Positions 11,001 to 20,371 of a stretch of DNA of 64,000 bases are shown piece after piece. The stretch comes from an uncultured Christensenellaceae bacterium (GTDB lineage Bacteria; Bacillota; Clostridia; Christensenellales; Borkfalkiaceae). Every line of letters begins with the position of its first letter. Positions within the stretch are counted from its first letter, which is position 1. Location of the stretch: assembly GCA_910586825.1 (NCBI GenBank), contig CAJUJF010000010.1, positions 5,589-69,588 of the forward strand, given 5' to 3'. The translations under genes were made by a program, and so were the position numbers. The notes under the pieces are model-generated. The model ran no database searches. It was not told where the DNA came from and worked only from the letters and a program-made list of their open reading frames with translations.

Positions 11001-13391
11001 TTATTTCGTACGGATCCGCACAGCCGTCACGCTGTAAGGATCGATCGTAACGCCGATCTTGTTTCCGCCCGTAAACCCGTTTACGACCCGCTTGACGGGC
11101 TGCACCGCATCGCCCTGCAACGAACTGACGGCGTTCGACTTGAAATTTTGCAACGTAGTAATCTGCGCCGTGCCTTTCAGTTCCGTACCCGCAACGCCCA
11201 CGTCTAAATTCAGTTTCATTTCCGTTCCGCCGGCGTTGACGATCTTCACAATCAAATCGCCCGTTTCCCCGTCTGCGCTCGCGACATAGAAGAAATCGTC
11301 GAGCGTGCGCGTGACGACGGCGCCCGTCAGCTTCGAATTTCCTTTATAGTCCGTTTTCGGCGCGCTTCCGGAAGCAAACGCGATCGAAGAATCGAGTTTG
11401 TGATCGCCCGCATTCTGCATGAACAACTGCTGGACGTAATAGTTCGGCGTCAGCACGACGTCGGTGGCGTCGAAGAACATCATGTTCACGCCCCAATGGT
11501 GATTGATGTTCATGTCGCTCGGACGGATCAGATTGCCGAACATGGGCGCGTACGCCGCAAGTTTCACGATATCGCCGTTGCGCTCGTAACCCGTCATCAT
11601 CGCCGCCTCGGAAAGCGCCGTGATCCAACTGTTCTCCGTATAGGGAAAGCGCGTGTTTTCGTCCGGTTCGGGCGAACAGACCGTAAGCGTATTCGCCGAA
11701 TACTCGCCGACGAACACCTCGTAATATTCGTTGGGATCGGTGTCCGGACGCTTGTAGCCGTCGTACATCGTCGTGTTCGCCAAAAAGTCGGTATAGTTCA
11801 TGTAGTAATGCTGGTCGTGCACGCCGTAATCGCTGACCGCGCCGATCTTACCGCTCTTTTTATAATTGAGCGCCGCCTGTTGCGCCAGCCCCTTACGGTT
11901 TGCGGAAGGAAGCTCGCAGTGCATGAACAAGGTACAGTTCCCGACGATGATCTTGACGCTGCGGTATAGATCGTTGTCTTCGAACGCGAACTCTTTCAAA
12001 AACTCTTCGTAATAGCGGGTGTAATAATCGCCCCACTGTTCGTTACCGATGCCGAGATAGTCCATTTCGAACGGTTCGGGGTGCCCCATGTTCACACGGA
12101 CCTGCGCCCAGTATTTTTCGTTCGGATCGGAGGAATCCACGCTCCCCTTCGCAAAGCAGATCAGGTCTTTCGCATCCTGTACGAAATCTTTGATCTTGTT
12201 GCCGTGACGCCCGTTCAGCGCCGCGCCGATGCTTTGACCCTGACAGGCTTTTCCGCAATTCAGCACGGGAATCGCTTTCGCGCCCAGCGAATCGCACAGC
12301 AAGAAATATTCGTAGAAGCCGATGCCGTATTCCATCTGATAATAGGATTTTCCGTTGCCGTCGTTCAACGCCCAGATATCCGTGCTGTAATCTCTCGTCG
12401 CCTGTTCGCCGTACGTGCGCTCTTCCGAAATTTTACTCTCGTCGTTGAGTTGATAGACGAATTCGGGCACCGTGTCCGCCGTCGCTTCGCCCGCGACGAG
12501 AGAAGCGCCGATGGACTTCTTCCAATCGTAATAGCTGTCGTCGTCCTTCCCCTCGATAATGCATCCGCCGGGGAAACGGAAAAATGCGGGCGACATGTCT
12601 TTGATCGCGTTGTACAGATAGTTTTTAAAACCGAGCGTCGAATCCGTCGTCTCGAATTTCACGCAGTCCAGAAGCACCTTCCCCGTACCGTTGAAAGTGA
12701 TCTTCATGACGAGATCTTTCGAGGACGTCCCCGTCGCCGTAACCGTCGCGCGGTATTTCACCCATTCGGCAGAAGGCGCGAGCGACAGTTCCTTTTTCGC
12801 ATAAACGGTCGTGCCGTCCGTCACCTCGACGGTGATTCCGTCGGAATAACTTCCCGTTTTGATAAAAGCGCTGAAAACGTAATCCACGCCCTCCGTTACC
12901 GCGATCGGCGCGGCGCCGTACCCGAGATTGGTAAGCGAACTGCCAGCCGTCGCGGCGATCTCCGCGTAGTCGAGATTGATGCCCCCGAACGCCGGTCTGT
13001 TTTTAAAAATCCCGTCGGTAGAAGCAACTTTAAAAATCGAAGACGGTTCCGCGCGCCAGCGTTCCCCTTTGCCGCCCGCGCCTTTGTTCGCAAACGACCC
13101 GTTCGCGACGAGGTTGTCGTCGAGTCCGTAACAGGCGAAATTGATGTCTTCGAGAAACAGCCCGAATAAATCGGAGGAAATTTGCTTCGACGCCGTCGTT
13201 TTGTCGATTCCGCCGGTGAGCGAAACCGTGACGTCCGCCTGATCGAACGCGGGCGCCGTGCCGTCGATTTTTTCGGGTTCGGACGGATCGCCGACGGGGT
13301 CCTTCCCCCCGTCTCCGCAACCGACCAGACCCAGAAATGCGGACGCGCAAAAAGCGCCCGCCAGACATGTTGCCAACACCTTCTTTTTCAT
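11001..13391 (-). CDS. Secreted lipoprotein alpha-L-arabinofuranosidase (GH51-like) with an N-terminal CBM4/9-like module
   Basis: Lipobox FLGLVGCGDGG. The N-terminal ~230 aa form a beta-sandwich-like module (NLVANGSFANKG...LLDCVKFE). The catalytic region carries GIGNEQWG (acid/base) and VFVGEYSA, followed by an AbfA-type C-terminal beta domain. I chose the ATG at 13391 (MKKKV) because GGGGGGA lies 6 nt upstream. Confidence 0.7.
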   Translation of the reverse strand: MKKKVLATCLAGAFCASAFLGLVGCGDGGKDPVGDPSEPEKIDGTAPAFDQADVTVSLTGGIDKTTASKQISSDLFGLFLEDINFACYGLDDNLVANGSFANKGAGGKGERWRAEPSSIFKVASTDGIFKNRPAFGGINLDYAEIAATAGSSLTNLGYGAAPIAVTEGVDYVFSAFIKTGSYSDGITVEVTDGTTVYAKKELSLAPSAEWVKYRATVTATGTSSKDLVMKITFNGTGKVLLDCVKFETTDSTLGFKNYLYNAIKDMSPAFFRFPGGCIIEGKDDDSYYDWKKSIGASLVAGEATADTVPEFVYQLNDESKISEERTYGEQATRDYSTDIWALNDGNGKSYYQMEYGIGFYEYFLLCDSLGAKAIPVLNCGKACQGQSIGAALNGRHGNKIKDFVQDAKDLICFAKGSVDSSDPNEKYWAQVRVNMGHPEPFEMDYLGIGNEQWGDYYTRYYEEFLKEFAFEDNDLYRSVKIIVGNCTLFMHCELPSANRKGLAQQAALNYKKSGKIGAVSDYGVHDQHYYMNYTDFLANTTMYDGYKRPDTDPNEYYEVFVGEYSANTLTVCSPEPDENTRFPYTENSWITALSEAAMMTGYERNGDIVKLAAYAPMFGNLIRPSDMNINHHWGVNMMFFDATDVVLTPNYYVQQLFMQNAGDHKLDSSIAFASGSAPKTDYKGNSKLTGAVVTRTLDDFFYVASADGETGDLIVKIVNAGGTEMKLNLDVGVAGTELKGTAQITTLQNFKSNAVSSLQGDAVQPVKRVVNGFTGGNKIGVTIDPYSVTAVRIRTK

Positions 13392-13544
13392 AAAATATCC
13401 CCCCATGATATTTTTGATACGAACGGCATGCTATCGCCCGTACCGTTTTGTCGGTCAACCGTATTGTAACACACTTTTTCGGATTCCGCAAGAGTGTCAT
13501 TGAATTTTTTCTGAAATTTTTTAAATTTTATTAAAGCAATGAAA

Positions 13545-14723
13545 TTACTGCTTATCCCCCGCGATTTCTTTTTTGTTCTTCGTGATCCGAAAGGTCAGTT
13601 CCGTCATGCAGATCATGATCGCGACGAATACGAGAAGATAGACGGGCATGATCGTAAAACCGATCAGATTTCCTAGAAGCCCGAACAGCGGCGGAATAAA
13701 CGTGGTCCCGACATAAGCGCTCGCCATCTGGACGCCGATGATCGCGCCGGAATTTTCCGCACCGAAATTTTTCGGCGTAGAATGAATGATCGAGGGATAA
13801 ATCGGCGCGCAACCAAACCCGATCACGACGAATCCGACAAGGGCAACGATCGATGACTGTACGGGGATCAGCAACGAAACGATCCCACAGGTTAAAATAC
13901 AAGTTCCTATGAGGATCATTTTTCTGTCGCCGAGCTTATCCGTGATAAACCCGCCGATAAATCTTCCGACGGTAATCCCGATATAAAACAGCGAAGCGAA
14001 CGTCGCCGCACGTTCGGGAGAGATCCCCTTCACCTCTACAAAATAAGTGCTTGCCCACTGCATGGCGGTGGCTTCCGCGGCGCAATAAGCAAAAAAACCG
14101 ATCAGGAGAAACGAAACCCCCTTGATTTTCAGCGCGCCGATCAGACCCAAGCTCTTCTGTTCCTGCACCGCCGCCTTTTTATTGACCTTCCAGACGGGAA
14201 GGGTCGCCAAAAGTAACACGCCGATCGCCAACTGAATATATCCTACGATACGGTATCCGTTGTTCCAGGTCGAGTTCGTCAGCGCGTATCCCATCACGAA
14301 CGGGCTGACGATCGTCCCCACCCCCCAAAAACAGTGCAACCAACTCATGTGCCTGGACTTATAGTGTAAGGCAACGTAGTTGTTCAACGCCGCGTCGATC
14401 GCGCCCGCGCCAAGTCCGTAAGGTACGGCAAAGACGATCAGCATCCAAAAACGGTTCGAAAAAGAAAAACCGAACAACGCGACGGCGGTGAGAAACACGC
14501 TGATCACGGTCACGACACGCGTGCCGAGTTTCCGCGTCAACTGATCCGAGAACAAGCTCGAAAGAATCGTTCCGCCCGATATGACCATGGAAACGATTCC
14601 CATAAAGGATACGGGCACGTTCAATTCTTCGTGCATGACCGGCCAGCCCGAACCGAGAAGAGAATCGGGAAGTCCCAAACTGATAAACGCGATATAGATC
14701 AACGCAAGCAAAAGAGTATACAT
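13545..14723 (-). CDS. MFS transporter
   Basis: About 12 predicted TM helices, with an MFS loop motif in DQLTRKLGTRVV. I chose the ATG at 14723 (MYTLLLALIY), since the track's start is a TTG 21 codons upstream. Confidence 0.8.
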   Translation of the reverse strand: MYTLLLALIYIAFISLGLPDSLLGSGWPVMHEELNVPVSFMGIVSMVISGGTILSSLFSDQLTRKLGTRVVTVISVFLTAVALFGFSFSNRFWMLIVFAVPYGLGAGAIDAALNNYVALHYKSRHMSWLHCFWGVGTIVSPFVMGYALTNSTWNNGYRIVGYIQLAIGVLLLATLPVWKVNKKAAVQEQKSLGLIGALKIKGVSFLLIGFFAYCAAEATAMQWASTYFVEVKGISPERAATFASLFYIGITVGRFIGGFITDKLGDRKMILIGTCILTCGIVSLLIPVQSSIVALVGFVVIGFGCAPIYPSIIHSTPKNFGAENSGAIIGVQMASAYVGTTFIPPLFGLLGNLIGFTIMPVYLLVFVAIMICMTELTFRITKNKKEIAGDKQ

Positions 14724-14860
14724 AATGTTTCCGATTTGCAATAGATTTCCGTCAACTTTCAAAATCCCATTTCGTTCACCGTGCAAGGTTTCGGCGTCGT
14801 TGAAATCAGATTCTTACGCATTATATCATTCTCTGATCGAATTATCAATCAAATACAGTC

Positions 14861-14914: not shown

Positions 14915-16585
14915 TCAGTAAGATTTTATCGTCTTTGCAACGTTGATATAGTGGTCGGCGATTCGTTCGATATTCAAAGACAGGGAGAGATACTGCGAGC
15001 CGACTTCGGGCGTGCAAGCACCCTCGCCCAAACGACAGATGTTGTTTTCCGCCATACGGGAGGTAAAACCGTCTATTTTTTCCTCCGCCTCGTACGCATT
15101 TTTCAGCGCTTGCAGGTCGCCGTTTTCGTAGGCTTTCATCACCTGATCAAAGAGGACGTGAATCAGTTCTTTCAGTTCCGCGATCTCCTTTTTCGCCGTT
15201 TCCGAAAACGCCGTTTCGGTCTCTTTCAGTCTGTCCGCATATTCGACGATATTTTCCGCATAGTCCCCGACGCGTTCCAGATCGGTGATCGTGCGGAACG
15301 CCGTGGAGAGATAGACGCGGTCTTTCTCGCTCAATTCGGATTTCATCAACCTGACGATGAACTTTGCAAGTTCCCGATTCAGATAATCGAGCTGCCGTTC
15401 CTGCCTGCGGAACAGCCCCTCTTTTTCATAGTTCAAGGTACACACGATTTCCGTGGAAATATCGAAATTCTTCAAAGCGATCTCCGCCATGTTCATGATC
15501 TCGCGCTTCGCCTGCTGAACGGCGATCGGAGGATTTTTCAGCATGTGCTCTTCCACGTAAAAGAAATGCGGCTCGTCGGCTTTCTTCCCGTCGCTTACCT
15601 TGTCGGGTACGATTTTCGTAACGAATTTTGCAAGAATGCCGGTGAGCGGCAACACGACAAACACCGTCAGCACGTTGAAAAACGTATGGAACATCGAAAG
15701 CTGTATCTGCGGCGCATGCGGGAACATTTTGGCGAAAAGCCAACCGTAATCGATACCGCCGAGCCGCAGGAAGAGTCCGAGCAACAAAAACACGACAACG
15801 CCGCTAACGTTGAATATCAGATGGATGAGCGCCGTCCGCTTGGCGTTGCGCGTGCTGGTCAGTCCCGCCATAAGCGCGGTGACGCACGTTCCGATATTCG
15901 CGCCCATCGTGAGATAGATGCCCTGATCGAGGGAGATCAAACCGCTTACGACCATGGTAAGGGTCATGGAAGTCATTACGGAAGAACTCTGAACGACCGC
16001 CGTCAACAGCGCCCCCACCAGCACCAACAACAAGGGATTCCGGAACGACGCGAGAAAGTTTTTAACCGATTCGAGTTCGGAAAAATAATTCATTGCCCCG
16101 CTCATCATCGAAAGTCCGACGAAAAGCATTCCGAACCCCGCCAAAATCCCGCCCGCTTTCCGGAACTTGTCCTTCTTTGCGAAAACGAGAATGAAGGCGC
16201 CGACGCCCGCCAACGAAGCAAAGACGACGGAAGTGGAAACGGAATTTCCGCCGAACATTCCCAAAGCGACAAGCTGCCCCGTGATCGTCGTACCGATATT
16301 CGCGCCGAAAATCACCGTTGCGGCCTGCGTAAGCGTCATGATCCCCGCGTTTACGAAGCCGATTACCATGACGGTCGTCGCGCTCGAACTTTGGATAAGC
16401 GCGGTCGTCGCCGCGCCGACGCCGACGCCCGCCAATTTACTCTTCGAAGTCTTCGCAAACAGCGCTTTCAGCCTCCTGTTCCCCAGCGATTCCAGATTGG
16501 AACTCATCATCGAACAGGCAATCAGAAATATCCCGACCCCAGCGATCAAATTAAGTACCGAAGTAACCACGGTTACCGCGTCCAT
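14915..16585 (-). CDS. Na/Pi-cotransporter family protein with C-terminal PhoU-like repeats
   Basis: Two Na/Pi-cotransporter repeats (LIQSSSATTVM, VVQSSSVMTSM) and two PhoU-like repeats (LERVGDYAENI, IERIADHYINV). I prefer the ATG at 16585 (MDAVTVV) because GGAGG lies 5 nt upstream. Confidence 0.85.
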   Translation of the reverse strand: MDAVTVVTSVLNLIAGVGIFLIACSMMSSNLESLGNRRLKALFAKTSKSKLAGVGVGAATTALIQSSSATTVMVIGFVNAGIMTLTQAATVIFGANIGTTITGQLVALGMFGGNSVSTSVVFASLAGVGAFILVFAKKDKFRKAGGILAGFGMLFVGLSMMSGAMNYFSELESVKNFLASFRNPLLLVLVGALLTAVVQSSSVMTSMTLTMVVSGLISLDQGIYLTMGANIGTCVTALMAGLTSTRNAKRTALIHLIFNVSGVVVFLLLGLFLRLGGIDYGWLFAKMFPHAPQIQLSMFHTFFNVLTVFVVLPLTGILAKFVTKIVPDKVSDGKKADEPHFFYVEEHMLKNPPIAVQQAKREIMNMAEIALKNFDISTEIVCTLNYEKEGLFRRQERQLDYLNRELAKFIVRLMKSELSEKDRVYLSTAFRTITDLERVGDYAENIVEYADRLKETETAFSETAKKEIAELKELIHVLFDQVMKAYENGDLQALKNAYEAEEKIDGFTSRMAENNICRLGEGACTPEVGSQYLSLSLNIERIADHYINVAKTIKSY

Positions 16586-16693
16586 GCAACCCTCCATTTT
16601 TTCTTTTTGAGTGAATTTTTTATTTTACGAAACGATCTTTGCGATCAGTTTGTGCTTTTTTCCGAAAAAGGCATCCTCGCGATCTGAGACTTT

Positions 16694-16740
16694 CAAAAAA
16701 ATAAAGAGACCCTTACTGAACTCAATTCAGTAAAAGTCTC
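16694..16740 (-). terminator. Leader terminator (expression platform) upstream of the Na/Pi transporter gene
   Basis: Minus strand reads GAGACUUUUACUGAA-UUGAG-UUCAGUAAGGGUCUC (15 bp incl. 2 G-U), followed by UUUAUUUUUUU. It lies ~110 nt upstream of the start codon, inside the 5' UTR. Confidence 0.6.
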
Positions 16741-16824
16741 GAAATTTAAGCGTTCCCGGACATTCGCAGATATCGTATTGACGGTTAGCGCACGTTATTG
16801 ACAACGCTTTCTACTCCCTTTTAT
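16731..16824 (-). promoter_or_regulatory. Candidate yybP-ykoY (Mn2+) riboswitch aptamer
   Basis: Minus strand: AUAAAAGGGAGUAG AAGCGUU ... GUCAAUA ... GUCAAUACG ... AACGCUU AAAUUUC GAGACUUUUA. The 5' AAAAG can pair with the 3' CUUUU (P1). GGGAGUAG matches the conserved L1 sequence and GAGAC the conserved 3' element. A 7-bp inner helix AAGCGUU/AACGCUU is present. The inner helices could not be mapped fully onto the family by eye. Confidence 0.45.
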
Positions 16825-16848
16825 GGCAATCTTACTATTTACAAGTTA

Positions 16849-16877
16849 ATCATAGCATACCCGATTTTGTTTGTCAA
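16849..16877 (-). promoter_or_regulatory. Sigma-A type promoter driving the riboswitch-like leader and Na/Pi gene
   Basis: Minus strand reads TTGACA, a 17-nt spacer, then TATGAT with a TGC extended -10 (-35 at 16872-16877, -10 at 16849-16854). Confidence 0.6.
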
Positions 16878-17052
16878 GAAAATTAAATATTTTGTTGCGT
16901 TGCAAATTTGTCTCGTCATCCCATAAATTTCTTTGAAAATTCGAATATCGCAAATTTTTATCAAACAATTATTATTTATCGATTTTTGTTTCTCTTTTCA
17001 TTTCCGCCATTTGCTCGATCAGTTCCGCCAAAGGATGGTATTCGCCGCCCCA

Positions 17053-17502
17053 TTATTCAAAGACGCGCATTCCCTCGTCTTGCAAAACCGGTCCCGTCAT
17101 TTTGATATCGATATTGATTTCCGATAAAGCTTTTTCGTAGTCAAGCGGTTTATAATCATTCGGCGTTAATAATGAAAACTTTTGATGGGAAACGCCGAAA
17201 ACTACGTTTTTAATTCCCAACGACGCAATCGCCGTTAAACAACGCTCGCACGGCGCAAAGCTTGTATAAAAAATCGCTTCTCGCAAAACCTCGTCGGAAT
17301 ACTTGTTTGCGCATTTATGTACCAAATTAAATTCCGCGTGTCCGAATAAACCGTTTATATGATCTGCGGTATTTTCGGCTTCTTGCAAAATATTTCCTCG
17401 ATATACGATTACCGCGCCGAAAGTATCGTAACCTTTTTTTTCCGCCGAGATTGCAAGTTCTAAGCAACGTCTCATATATTGTTCGTGTTCTTTCATTTCC
17501 AT
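17053..17502 (-). CDS. CMP/dCMP-type zinc deaminase (guanine/cytidine/tRNA-adenosine deaminase family)
   Basis: H-A-E motif (GHAEFNLV) and P-C-x-x-C motif (APCERC), at 149 aa. The gene is visibly AT-richer than its neighbours. Confidence 0.8.
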   Translation of the reverse strand: MEMKEHEQYMRRCLELAISAEKKGYDTFGAVIVYRGNILQEAENTADHINGLFGHAEFNLVHKCANKYSDEVLREAIFYTSFAPCERCLTAIASLGIKNVVFGVSHQKFSLLTPNDYKPLDYEKALSEINIDIKMTGPVLQDEGMRVFE

Positions 17503-17542
17503 AAGATCATTCTATCGCTTTTATATATTGTTCACCAACCGC

Positions 17543-17600
17543 AAAATAAAAGAAAAAACCCAAATCAAACTACCCTTTATATAGGTGTTCAACTTAGGTT
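17543..17600 (-). terminator. Putative terminator after tRNA-Ser
   Basis: Minus strand AACCUAAGUUGAAC pairs with GUUUGAUUUGGGUU (14 bp incl. 4 G-U, 16-nt loop). UUUUCUUUUAUUUU follows. Confidence 0.4.
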
Positions 17601-17605
17601 CTTAC

Positions 17606-17695
17606 TGGCGCAGAGAAAGGGATTTGAACCCTTGGATACATTCCTGCATCACACGATTTCGAATCGTGCGCGTTCGACCGCTCCGCCATCTCTGC
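17606..17695 (-). tRNA. tRNA-Ser (anticodon CGA), CCA encoded
   Basis: The reverse complement folds as a class II tRNA. Acceptor stem GCAGAGA/TCTCTGC. Anticodon stem-loop CACGA-TTCGAAA-TCGTG gives anticodon CGA. It has a long variable arm, T-arm AAGGG-TTCAAAT-CCCTT, discriminator G and CCA. Confidence 0.9.
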
Positions 17696-17708
17696 AAAAC
17701 CGAACATA

Positions 17709-17737
17709 ATTGTACACGAATTTCGCCAAAAAAGCAA
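17709..17737 (-). promoter_or_regulatory. Dedicated sigma-A type promoter for tRNA-Ser
   Basis: Minus strand reads TTGCTT, a 17-nt spacer, then TACAAT. The -10 ends ~13 nt upstream of the mature tRNA 5' end. Confidence 0.5.
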
Positions 17738-17777
17738 TCGTTTTGGCGCGACTTTCACCTTTTTTCGGAAAAATTCA

Positions 17778-17810
17778 TAAAAAACTTCCTCTCCGTCACC
17801 GAAGAGGAAG
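17778..17810 (-). terminator. Intrinsic terminator ending the giant-gene operon
   Basis: Minus strand reads CTTCCTCT-TCGGTGACGG-AGAGGAAG (8-bp perfect stem), followed by TTTTTT. It starts 12 nt after the stop of the 849-aa gene. Confidence 0.65.
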
Positions 17811-17821
17811 CAAAATTCGTT

Positions 17822-20371
17822 TTATTTTTTGATAGCGGCGTTTTCAGCGTCGTCGATGACCCGAATCAGCCCGCGGGCGATCAATTCTTCGGTCGTGGAA
17901 TACGGTTCGGCGTAATCAACGGATTCGTGTTCTATCCGCACTAAGCCGTGTTCCGAAAACACCGTTTCGATCAACTGCTTTGCATAATCGAGCCTGCGAT
18001 CGGTCTGCACGCGATAAAGCAGAGGCGTTTTGGTGTTCTTACTCGTAAGCGACAGATCTTCCACCTTGTATTTCGTATTCGCATAACGCGCGGGATCGGC
18101 ATTCAAGCAAAGACACAGCGTTTCCCCGCGGACGACGATCGTAGCAAGACTGACTTTTCCCTTGCGGAAAGATTCGCGCTTCCAATAAACTTTATTGCGC
18201 ACGCCGCGGAAGGAGAAAATGCAATTCTTTAACGCCGAATAACGCTCTTTCAACCCCTTGTCGCCCTGCGCGACGTAAGCCGTAAGACTGACGTTGTACC
18301 GCACGACGTTGCCCGTTTCAGTCACGACGATTTCCGCGGCGTCCTCGTTCTCCTCCTCGTTTTCCGAAAACAACACCGCGAGAGGAATTTCTTCCGCCTC
18401 TACCTGTTCTTCCGACTCTTCCTCCTCCGGAACGGGCGCGGCTTCCGCCACAACGACCTCTTCCGCCGCCTCTTCGGGGAAAATTTCCAAAACGGGAGTA
18501 TCGTCCTCGTCTTCGATCGTCATCTGTGAAAACGGTTCCCCGAACAAAGTCTCTTCTGCGATCGGCTCCGCTTCTTCCGGTTGCGATTCCGATTCGGTGA
18601 CGGTCTCTTCTTGCGTATCTTCGGGAACGGGTTGTTCGACAACGGGCTCTTTGGGCTTTTCCGGTTCGGAAAGCGTTTCTTCCGCGTGCGCGATTCCCCC
18701 GAACGGCGTTCCGCCCTCTCCCATCACTTTGATCAGCTCGCGTTCGATCAACGCTTCCGTCGTCTCGTACGGTAATCGGTAATCCTCCGTTGCCGCTTCC
18801 GCCAAGCGCTCGATCCCCAGCTCCTCCATCATCCGATCGATCAGATCCTTCGCGTAACCCACCCGCCGTTCGTTTCTGATCTGATACAGCAACGGCGTTT
18901 TCGTCTTGGGACTGCGGATCCGCAGATCTTTTACCTTGTACTTCGTCTCCTCGTATTGATTCGGTTCCGTCGCGAGACACAGACACAGCGTCTTTCCGCG
19001 GATCGCAAACGTTGCGACAGTCTGTCTTCCGCAATGGAAACTATCCCGTTTCCAACTGATCCTGCTCTTTACTTTCTTATACGAAAGCAGGTAGTTTTTC
19101 AGTTCCGTGTAACGCGCTTGCAACACGTCGCCGCCCTGAATGAGCCGCGCCGTGAAACTGCGGTTATAGCGCAGAACCCGACCCGTTTCCGTCACGACTA
19201 CTTCGACCTCTTCCGTCTCCTCGTCGGCGAAGTCTGCAAGCGTCGCATCGTCCTCTTCTTCCTCTTCCGCCGTTGTTTCGGCAACGGGTTCCTCGGACTT
19301 TTCCGGTTCGGGAAGCGTTTCTTCCGCGTGCGCGATTCCCCCGAACGGCGTTCCGCCCTCTCCCATCACTTTGATCAGCTCGCGTTCGATCAACGCTTCC
19401 GTCGTCTCGTACGGTAATCGGTAATCCTCCGTTGCCGCTTCCGCCAAGCGCTCGATCCCCAGCTCCTCCATCATCCGATCGATCAGATCCTTCGCGTAAC
19501 CCACCCGCCGTTCGTTTCTGATCTGATACAGCAACGGCGTTTTCGTCTTGGGACTGCGGATCCGCAGATCTTTTACCTTGTACTTCGTCTCCTCGTATTG
19601 ATTCGGTTCCGTCGCGAGACACAGACACAGCGTCTTTCCGCGGATCGCAAACGTTGCGACAGTCTGTCTTCCGCAATGGAAACTATCCCGTTTCCAACTG
19701 ATCCTGCTCTTTACTTTCTTATACGAAAGCAGGTAGTTTTTCAGTTCCGTGTAACGCGCTTGCAACACGTCGCCGCCCTGAATGAGCCGCGCCGTGAAAC
19801 TGCGGTTATAGCGCAGAACCCGACCCGTTTCCGTCACGACTACTTCGACCTCTTCCGTCTCCTCGTCGGCGAAGTCTGCAAGCGTCGCATCGTCCTCTTC
19901 TTCCTCTTCCGCCGCCGTTTCGATAGCAGCTTCTTCGGGCTTTTCCGGTTCGGAAGCCGAATCGACGACCGGCACCGCCTGAATGGGCGGAACCGCGACT
20001 GCGATCGCTTCCGGCGCGGAAATCTTGGTAACGACTTCGTACTTTTCCGCCGCCGAAGAGATGATATTCCGAAGATCGGAAATCGTCTTTTCTTCCGAAG
20101 CGGCGTACTTTTCGGAATCCTGTACGGCGTTAATGACGCCCTCGACGTTGTCCTTATCGACGCTCGCACCGACGTTCATGTTTCTGAGCTGTTGCATCAG
20201 AATTTCGCGTTCCTGTTGCAACAGCTTGTCGTACAGTTTCCGTTCGCCGCGCTTATTGAAGAAATAGGCGACGACGACGTTCGTCACGATCAGCGCCGCG
20301 ACGACGATCGCCGCGACGATACAGATGATCGTTTGCGTAGGGGTAAATACGGAAGCAAGGATACCGTTCAT
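17822..20371 (-). CDS. 849-aa membrane-tethered protein with three copies of an uncharacterised ~150-aa basic domain separated by acidic linkers
   Basis: N-terminal TM helix (IICIVAAIVVAALIVTNVVVAYFF) followed by KRGERK, which predicts a cytoplasmic body. A coiled-coil segment (LLQQEREILMQQL) comes next. The repeated domain reads RYNRSFTARLIQ...ISWKRDSFHCGRQTVATFAIRGKTLCLCL...KYKVKDL...TPLLYQIRNERRVGYAKDLI. The start ATG overlaps the giant gene's stop (TAATG), and the giant gene's last codons form GGAGGTG. Confidence 0.85.
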   Translation of the reverse strand: MNGILASVFTPTQTIICIVAAIVVAALIVTNVVVAYFFNKRGERKLYDKLLQQEREILMQQLRNMNVGASVDKDNVEGVINAVQDSEKYAASEEKTISDLRNIISSAAEKYEVVTKISAPEAIAVAVPPIQAVPVVDSASEPEKPEEAAIETAAEEEEEDDATLADFADEETEEVEVVVTETGRVLRYNRSFTARLIQGGDVLQARYTELKNYLLSYKKVKSRISWKRDSFHCGRQTVATFAIRGKTLCLCLATEPNQYEETKYKVKDLRIRSPKTKTPLLYQIRNERRVGYAKDLIDRMMEELGIERLAEAATEDYRLPYETTEALIERELIKVMGEGGTPFGGIAHAEETLPEPEKSEEPVAETTAEEEEEDDATLADFADEETEEVEVVVTETGRVLRYNRSFTARLIQGGDVLQARYTELKNYLLSYKKVKSRISWKRDSFHCGRQTVATFAIRGKTLCLCLATEPNQYEETKYKVKDLRIRSPKTKTPLLYQIRNERRVGYAKDLIDRMMEELGIERLAEAATEDYRLPYETTEALIERELIKVMGEGGTPFGGIAHAEETLSEPEKPKEPVVEQPVPEDTQEETVTESESQPEEAEPIAEETLFGEPFSQMTIEDEDDTPVLEIFPEEAAEEVVVAEAAPVPEEEESEEQVEAEEIPLAVLFSENEEENEDAAEIVVTETGNVVRYNVSLTAYVAQGDKGLKERYSALKNCIFSFRGVRNKVYWKRESFRKGKVSLATIVVRGETLCLCLNADPARYANTKYKVEDLSLTSKNTKTPLLYRVQTDRRLDYAKQLIETVFSEHGLVRIEHESVDYAEPYSTTEELIARGLIRVIDDAENAAIKK
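18656..19914. repeat. Near-perfect in-frame tandem duplication, period 642 bp (214 codons)
   Basis: 18656-19272 matches 19298-19914 at an offset of exactly 642 bp. The only mismatch I found is 18670 a versus 19312 g. The encoded protein segments are identical. Confidence 0.9.

Follow-up and report, generated by a model that had tools for sequence, protein, structure and literature searches.

In the window, by which we mean the whole 64,000-nt stretch of DNA analysed here, a minus-strand gene encodes a 556-aa protein of the Na/Pi symporter family and is preceded by a leader of ~255 nt, counted from a transcription start site (TSS) that we place by inference near 16842 to the ATG at 16585 (Table 1). 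The gene product matched Na_Pi_cotrans (185.6 bits) and PhoU (71 bits) of Pfam as well as NF037997, Na/Pi symporter, of NCBIfam (195.5 bits), with a partial match to phoU_full over residues 360-553, and its architecture, two Na_Pi_cotrans domains and a C-terminal PhoU domain, is like that of NptA of S. aureus and YjbB of E. coli. The start given in the list of open reading frames, 16597, is an ATG overlapping the Shine-Dalgarno (SD) sequence GGAGG, and the orthologue in another genome of the genus (G010; protein 72% identical) starts at the equivalent of 16585; the true gene start is likely the ATG at 16585. The near-consensus promoter claimed by an earlier, sequence-only reading of this DNA, like every other sequence feature listed there, is present where it had been placed, matching 11 of 12 consensus positions, and taken alone it does not exceed chance (one site versus 1.5 expected in shuffles). 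An equivalent leader precedes the gene in G010, with its own TTGACA / TATAAT promoter at equal distance.

The leader lies within a low-GC patch (16500-18000; 36-44% versus ~54-58% in the flanks), which also covers a 149-aa cytidine/deoxycytidylate-deaminase-family gene (17053-17502, minus) and a tRNA-Ser(CGA) (17606-17695, minus). An 849-aa ORF follows at 17822-20371 (minus), with no assignment beyond a weak, sub-threshold Pfam match to the Csx1 CARF domain (20.4 bits, cutoff 24.7). On the 3' side of the Na/Pi gene lie genes for an MFS transporter (13545-14786) and an alpha-L-arabinofuranosidase-family protein (11001-13406), both on the minus strand.

Table 1. Positions of the promoter, the candidate aptamer and its parts, the terminator and the Na/Pi symporter-family gene in the window
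Feature	Position	Strand	Sequence or composition	Basis
Promoter, sigma-70-type	16877-16849	minus	-35 TTGACA 16877-16872; 17-nt spacer; extended -10 TGcTATGAT, with TG 16857-16856 and -10 at 16854-16849	11/12 consensus matches, TG present
Candidate aptamer, three-way-junction yybP-ykoY type, 93 nt	16823-16731	minus		Covariance model R1, 120.6 bits
5' segment	16824-16811	minus	AUAAAAGGGAGUAG	
P1.1	16823-16818 with 16736-16731	minus	UAAAAG with CUUUUA	Covariation
L1	16817-16811 (5' strand); 16741-16737 (3' strand)	minus	GGAGUAG; CGAGA	
L1 5' side, conserved string	16818-16811	minus	GGGAGUAG	
P1.2	16810-16808 with 16744-16742	minus	AAA with UUU	Covariation
P2 hairpin	16807-16792	minus		Covariation
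P3.1	16791-16782 with 16758-16750	minus		Covariation
L3	16781-16775	minus	UCAAUAC	Between P3.1 and P3.2
P3.2 hairpin	16774-16759	minus		Covariation
Linker in place of P4	16749-16745	minus	UUAAA	
L1 3' side, conserved string	16741-16736	minus	CGAGAC	
3' segment	16741-16731	minus	CGAGACUUUUA	
Intrinsic terminator, putative expression platform	16740-16694	minus	Stem-loop 16740-16706; U-run 16705-16695	
SD	16595-16591	minus	GGAGG	5' of ATG 16585
Na/Pi symporter-family gene, 556 aa, C-terminal PhoU-like domain	16585-14915	minus		Pfam, NCBIfam

The sequence-only reading had taken the leader for a Mn2+ riboswitch of the yybP-ykoY family. To look at the element beyond the window, a covariance model (R1) was built from three leaders, namely those of the window, of G010 and of a genome from another family (G033), where a near-identical leader stands before a Na_Ca_ex gene. 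Through R1, 35 matches of 28-120 bits were obtained in 33 of 401 genomes of the order Christensenellales (24 of 173 genera), all of them in sense orientation, 30-130 nt 5' of a membrane-protein gene that is nearly always a transporter gene. When 41 sequences were aligned to the model, pairing was found in 94.5% of cells and two-sided changes in 25 of the 27 base pairs; the covariation score of 0.683 was reached by none of 500 shuffles (0.200), and slid partners gave at most 0.107. Every one of the helices P1.1, P1.2, P2, P3.1 and P3.2 is supported by covariation in these 41 sequences, and RNAalifold predicted identical helices, on that same model-fitted alignment. The AAAAG/CUUUU pairing proposed as P1 thus corresponds to the covariation-supported P1.1. 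Since P4 is absent and the element has a three-way junction, the internal helices could not be mapped by eye on the four-way-junction model that the sequence-only reading had in mind.

The loops are conserved as well. The 5' strand of L1, GGGAGUAG, which contains the GGAGUAG already recognized as L1, is kept in 40 of the 41 sequences, and the 3' strand reads [C/U][G/A]AGAC in all 41, in line with the proposal of GAGAC as a conserved 3' element. The linker is UUAAA or UGAAA in 26 of 41, and the L3 string CGUCA is kept in most homologues. With regard to the GUCAAUA strings thought to recall the second conserved loop, the proposal held for one copy, 16782-16776, which is the conserved L3, and failed for the other, 16802-16796, which forms the variable P2 loop and which relatives lack. 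For the window sequence, the single-sequence fold of RNAfold prefers a long-range AAGCGUU/AACGCUU pairing that replaces P2; this pairing was rejected, since in homologues P2 is retained and the alternative disrupted, as at L116, where P2 is formed as GCAUUU/AAAUGC.

In Rfam searches, nothing but one tRNA was found at gathering thresholds (GA) in the whole window. The curated yybP-ykoY model, RF00080, for which a score above the gathering cutoff had been named as support, matched neither the 401-nt leader region 16560-16960, at E<=10 and with permissive filters, nor any of 30-odd close homologues, so that by its standard the element falls outside the family. Of the two-part refutation named in the sequence-only reading, the lack of a significant RF00080 hit thus came true, and the lack of a covariation-supported fold did not. 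In genome-wide searches of 41 related genomes, RF00080 left the locus unmatched and never reached its cutoff of 45 bits, while sub-cutoff matches of 17-41 bits were found elsewhere. The best Rfam match of the leader was instead RF02617 (SSRC10, "Streptococcus sRNA 10"), with 24.2 bits and an E value of 0.017, below its GA of 56; the match includes an exact ACCGUCAAUACG and the same arrangement of the terminator, and RF02617 scored 29-43 bits on relatives (GA 56). In relatives, RF02617 and RF00080 match common loci, which precede a gene for an MntP-like protein of ~200 aa, for example on contig C24 of the window's own genome (G000), with 32.4 and 32.9 bits, respectively. This indicates that the RNAs described by SSRC10 and RF00080 overlap, and the shared sub-cutoff matches suggest that the genus carries a divergent Mn-type riboswitch to which the curated model gives too low a score.

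A second model, R2, was built from the 41 aligned sequences. It scored 64.7 bits on the mntP leader of the own genome, versus 32.9 bits for RF00080, and matched in 215 of 399 Clostridia genomes; we therefore consider the elements one large family that includes RF00080-like copies. The own-genome copy is a second yybP-ykoY-type riboswitch candidate before an MntP-like gene (G000:C24:9696-9851; L060 3497-3652, minus), with a differing L3 (UCCACAUAU); at 32.9 bits against a GA of 45, standard annotation would miss that copy too.

The closest described system is the mgtA riboswitch of S. pneumoniae, a yybP-ykoY family member. According to Martin et al. (2019, PMC6649816), it forms a three-way junction in which an invariant UNAAA replaces P4, the 3' strand of L1 is an invariant AGA preceded in streptococci by G, C49 and A50 of L3 coordinate metal, and a terminator comes next. 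The window element shares P1, P2 and P3, UUAAA at the position of UNAAA, GGAGUAG and G-AGA in L1, and a terminator directly after the aptamer that overlaps the 3' strand of P1, with the logic of an ON switch. SSRC10 was described as a terminated S. pyogenes transcript immediately 5' of a "putative calcium transporter" gene and was seen on Northern blots as a discrete terminated transcript (PMC3675131). The gene 3' of it encodes a streptococcal P-type ATPase, and RF02617 is probably the S. pyogenes copy of the mgtA riboswitch; the window L3, CCGUCAAUACG, matches the SSRC10 consensus (CCGUCaaUACG) exactly. The window differs from the S. pneumoniae system in its cargo, a Na/Pi symporter-PhoU protein rather than the mgtA product, described as a PII-type Mn2+/Ca2+ ATPase, and in its host, a gut Christensenellales-type clostridium rather than a streptococcus.

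With the canonical class, represented by L. lactis yoaB, B. subtilis yybP/ykoY and E. coli mntP/alx (RF00080), the window element has in common the nucleotides of the L1/L3 docking site and P1.1 as the putative switching helix; sibling copies would, in addition, control metal-efflux-type membrane proteins, the RF00080-like copy of the own genome standing before an MntP-like gene. It differs by having a three-way instead of a four-way junction and by the blindness of RF00080 to it. Considering the conserved fold and loops together, the leader is very probably a genuine riboswitch of the yybP-ykoY class in its three-way-junction form, a metal-responsive ON switch whose ligand would most likely be Mn2+. 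Neither the class nor its three-way form is novel; the novelty appears to lie in the cargo and in a clade that the curated model does not see.

Immediately behind the aptamer, the terminator has a stem of 16 pairs including G-U, a loop of three and a tail, TTTATTTTTT, with UUUAUUUUUU directly after the stem-loop, and it leaves a spacer of ~100 nt to the gene. Its 5' arm (16740-16726, GAGACUUUUACUGAA) includes the 3' strand of L1 and the entire 3' strand of P1.1. The sharing of the 3' P1 strand with the terminator, and with it the ON-switch architecture proposed earlier, is thus seen here and also in 24 of 33 homologues, where a terminator starting at the equivalent [G/A]AGAC overlaps P1.1. In homologues of the P-type-ATPase group, the 3' strand of P1.1 (CUUUUAUC) pairs with the SD region instead; one aptamer with interchangeable expression platforms is a typical riboswitch trait. 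The terminator hairpin alone was calculated at -20.9 kcal/mol, and in the leader the terminator state had -30.2 versus a weak -7.2 kcal/mol for the aptamer secondary structure, as computed by a nearest-neighbour model that is blind to ligand-stabilised L1-L3 docking. Termination would therefore be the default, and such modelled energetics fit a ligand-dependent ON switch.

Based on these features, the following mechanism is proposed. Transcription would start near 16842 and, without ligand, the terminator at 16740-16706 with its U-run would form, because it captures the 3' strands of P1.1 and L1, and stop transcription ~100 nt short of the gene. Upon binding of a divalent cation between L1 (GGAGUAG/CGAGA) and L3 (UCAAUAC), the two helical legs would dock and P1.1 would be held, so that the terminator could not nucleate and the polymerase would read through into the Na/Pi symporter-PhoU gene. 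The ON direction in vivo is what we infer from this layout. By analogy, Mn2+ would be the most likely ligand, since the binding-site nucleotides are identical to those of the characterised Mn2+-activated relative.

To survey the cargo, the first genes behind 33 newly fetched loci of the order were classed by blastp clustering and by Pfam on representatives. A Na_Ca_ex antiporter (CaCA; calcium/sodium antiporter TIGR00367, 254 bits) comes first at 15 of the 33, four of which continue with a Na/Pi-PhoU gene; a P-type cation ATPase with Cation_ATPase_N/C domains at seven; a Na/Pi-PhoU gene at five, in addition to the window and G010; a lone OAD_beta-like gene at four; and CitMHS and Band_7 at one each. 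Sibling copies of the predicted riboswitch stand before P-type ATPase, MntP-like and CaCA genes, and apart from Na/Pi this cargo (P-type cation ATPase, MntP-like protein, Ca/Na antiporter) is typical of the class, whose cargo according to reviews comprises MntP, TerC, P-type ATPases and UPF0016. In the cargo set of the order, Na+-coupled and Ca2+-type transporters (CaCA, PMCA-like ATPase, OAD_beta) abound, and no TerC or UPF0016 gene was seen. The sequence-only reading had called the Na/Pi cargo atypical, and this holds within the searchable literature, which lacks the two founding papers (Dambach 2015, Price 2015): it contains no paper pairing yybP-ykoY with a cotransporter or "manganese riboswitch" with a phosphate transporter, and papers with both yybP and "symporter" draw no link between them. 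Nevertheless, this cargo recurs in the order.

Within the genus, this Na/Pi paralogue occurs only in G000 and G010; the other genomes have only a ~35%-identical Na/Pi copy, which G000 carries too, and no switch was found at that copy in G000 by R1 or R2. By scanning an alignment of the Na/Pi protein against 185,579 species genomes, 80 orthologous loci (53-77% identity) were obtained, spanning Christensenellales-type metagenome-assembled genomes, the cultured Pumilibacter muris CLA-AA-M08, Lachnospiraceae and Bacteroidales. The predicted riboswitch lies 5' of the Na/Pi orthologue (58-77% identity) at 14 of the 80, all Clostridia-type and mostly among the orthologues nearest to the window protein, so that an equivalent leader at orthologous loci is found beyond G010; P. 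muris CLA-AA-M08 (L148) is a carrier. At the other 66 loci (Lachnospiraceae, Bacteroidales and others) no switch was detected by R1 or R2, with which a GGAGUAG...AGAC regular expression agrees. At a fifteenth locus the switch lies between the Na/Pi and CaCA genes. Altogether four gene orders were found, with RS denoting the predicted riboswitch: RS-NaPi, RS-CaCA-NaPi, RS-NaPi-CaCA and NaPi-RS-CaCA, which argues for a functional link between the Na/Pi-PhoU and CaCA transporters. At both L210 and L220 the two genes are adjacent, with the element between Na/Pi and CaCA at L210 and before Na/Pi at L220, indicating rearrangement with the linkage retained. The link of Na/Pi-PhoU to metal consists solely of this operon association with CaCA.

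Among the best 40 R2 matches in Clostridia outside the order, 21 precede an OAD_beta-like gene, nine CaCA, eight a P-type ATPase and one MntP, and none a Na/Pi gene; the Na/Pi cargo therefore appears lineage-restricted. The lone OAD_beta-like gene (PF03977; 513 bits at L134), first in 21 of these best 40, is the commonest cargo of the three-way-junction form in Clostridia (L222, L224-L226, L229, L230, L233-L235, L238-L241, L244, L246-L248, L251 and L258-L260 outside the order, and further L127, L130, L134, L138 and L059). Within 2.7-kb stretches no decarboxylase alpha or gamma genes were found near it, and its standing alone as the commonest cargo suggests that the OadB-like protein has an ion-transport role of its own.

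The composition of this cargo, with TerC and UPF0016 unseen, leaves room for a different physiological ion, and the CaCA and PMCA-type genes make Ca2+ a live alternative. Fold and mechanism would then be equal and the ligand would be Ca2+ (or another divalent cation) in place of Mn2+, in a calcium/phosphate regulon where CaCA and the P-type ATPase export the cation and phosphate handling by Na/Pi-PhoU averts calcium phosphate stress, a reading that we regard as improbable in its ligand and in its physiology alike. CaCA is the commonest first gene of the subtype in the order, and P-type ATPases with Cation_ATPase_N/C domains are among the cargo, but Mn2+, too, can be a substrate of both CaCA and P-type IIA pumps. 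The different L3 of the own genome's second copy, before the MntP-like gene, could mean two ion specificities, whereas the L1 and L3 nucleotides of the window equal those of the streptococcal RNA, and no sequence feature marking a Ca2+ site was found. For that streptococcal RNA itself, Martin et al. (PMC6649816) give a higher affinity of the S. pneumoniae aptamer for Ca2+ than for Mn2+ in vitro, yet read-through that is activated far more by Mn2+ than by Ca2+.

A structured leader or small RNA without ion sensing, either a constitutive attenuator or an SSRC10-like, ~135-nt terminated transcript acting in trans, is very unlikely. The best Rfam match, RF02617, is filed as an sRNA gene, Northern blots show its namesake as a discrete terminated transcript (PMC3675131), and the terminator is thermodynamically favoured; however, a short terminated transcript is the product of any transcriptional riboswitch in its OFF state. 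Moreover, every copy of the element points in the sense direction, 30-130 nt 5' of a membrane-protein gene that nearly always encodes a transporter, differing expression platforms are joined to one aptamer, and the invariant internal-loop nucleotides are identical to the metal site of the characterised riboswitch, all of which speak for a sensor. Chance resemblance, by which an AT-rich leader with a terminator merely happened to contain GGGAGUAG and GAGAC, would agree with the silence of RF00080 and a promoter scan no better than shuffles, but it is already refuted by R1, whose 35 matches, found in 33 of 401 genomes and scoring as high as 120 bits, all precede membrane-protein genes, nearly all for transporters, and by covariation above every control, and its probability is negligible. 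Taken together, the original observation is confirmed, and its interpretation as a metal-responsive yybP-ykoY-class switch is supported in every computable respect save the Rfam score.

With the metal-responsive switch as the preferred reading, the curated Mn2+ riboswitch model misses an entire three-way-junction clade in gut Clostridia, including the MntP-linked copy of the window's own genome, so that these regulons escape standard pipelines. S. aureus NptA imports Pi, most effectively at alkaline pH, with PhoPR-dependent expression and a PhoU domain that affects regulation (PMC13170248), and for E. coli YjbB a link to Pi export has been reported (Motomura 2011, as cited in PMC7980370). Unlike these two, which are tied to phosphate status, the window gene would be under a metal-type riboswitch, and its orthologues are often co-transcribed with a Ca/Na antiporter gene. 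A metal-sensing RNA that turns on Na/Pi-PhoU would tie divalent-cation stress to phosphate transport, and the frequent sharing of one operon with the antiporter offers a lead on the function of the widespread, poorly understood NptA/YjbB family. Our best guess is that the transporter moves phosphate or metal-phosphate in a divalent-cation detoxification module with the antiporter. More specifically, and as a speculative idea that is unlikely to hold, CaCA and Na/Pi-PhoU might form one module for the joint expulsion of phosphate and Mn2+ or Ca2+, in which Na+ would cycle from one carrier to the other and metal-phosphate efflux would be switched on directly by the cation via the RNA. The cultured carrier P. 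muris CLA-AA-M08 makes the prediction directly testable. If true, such an efflux module would mean that the large NptA/YjbB-PhoU family serves metal homeostasis instead of phosphate acquisition.
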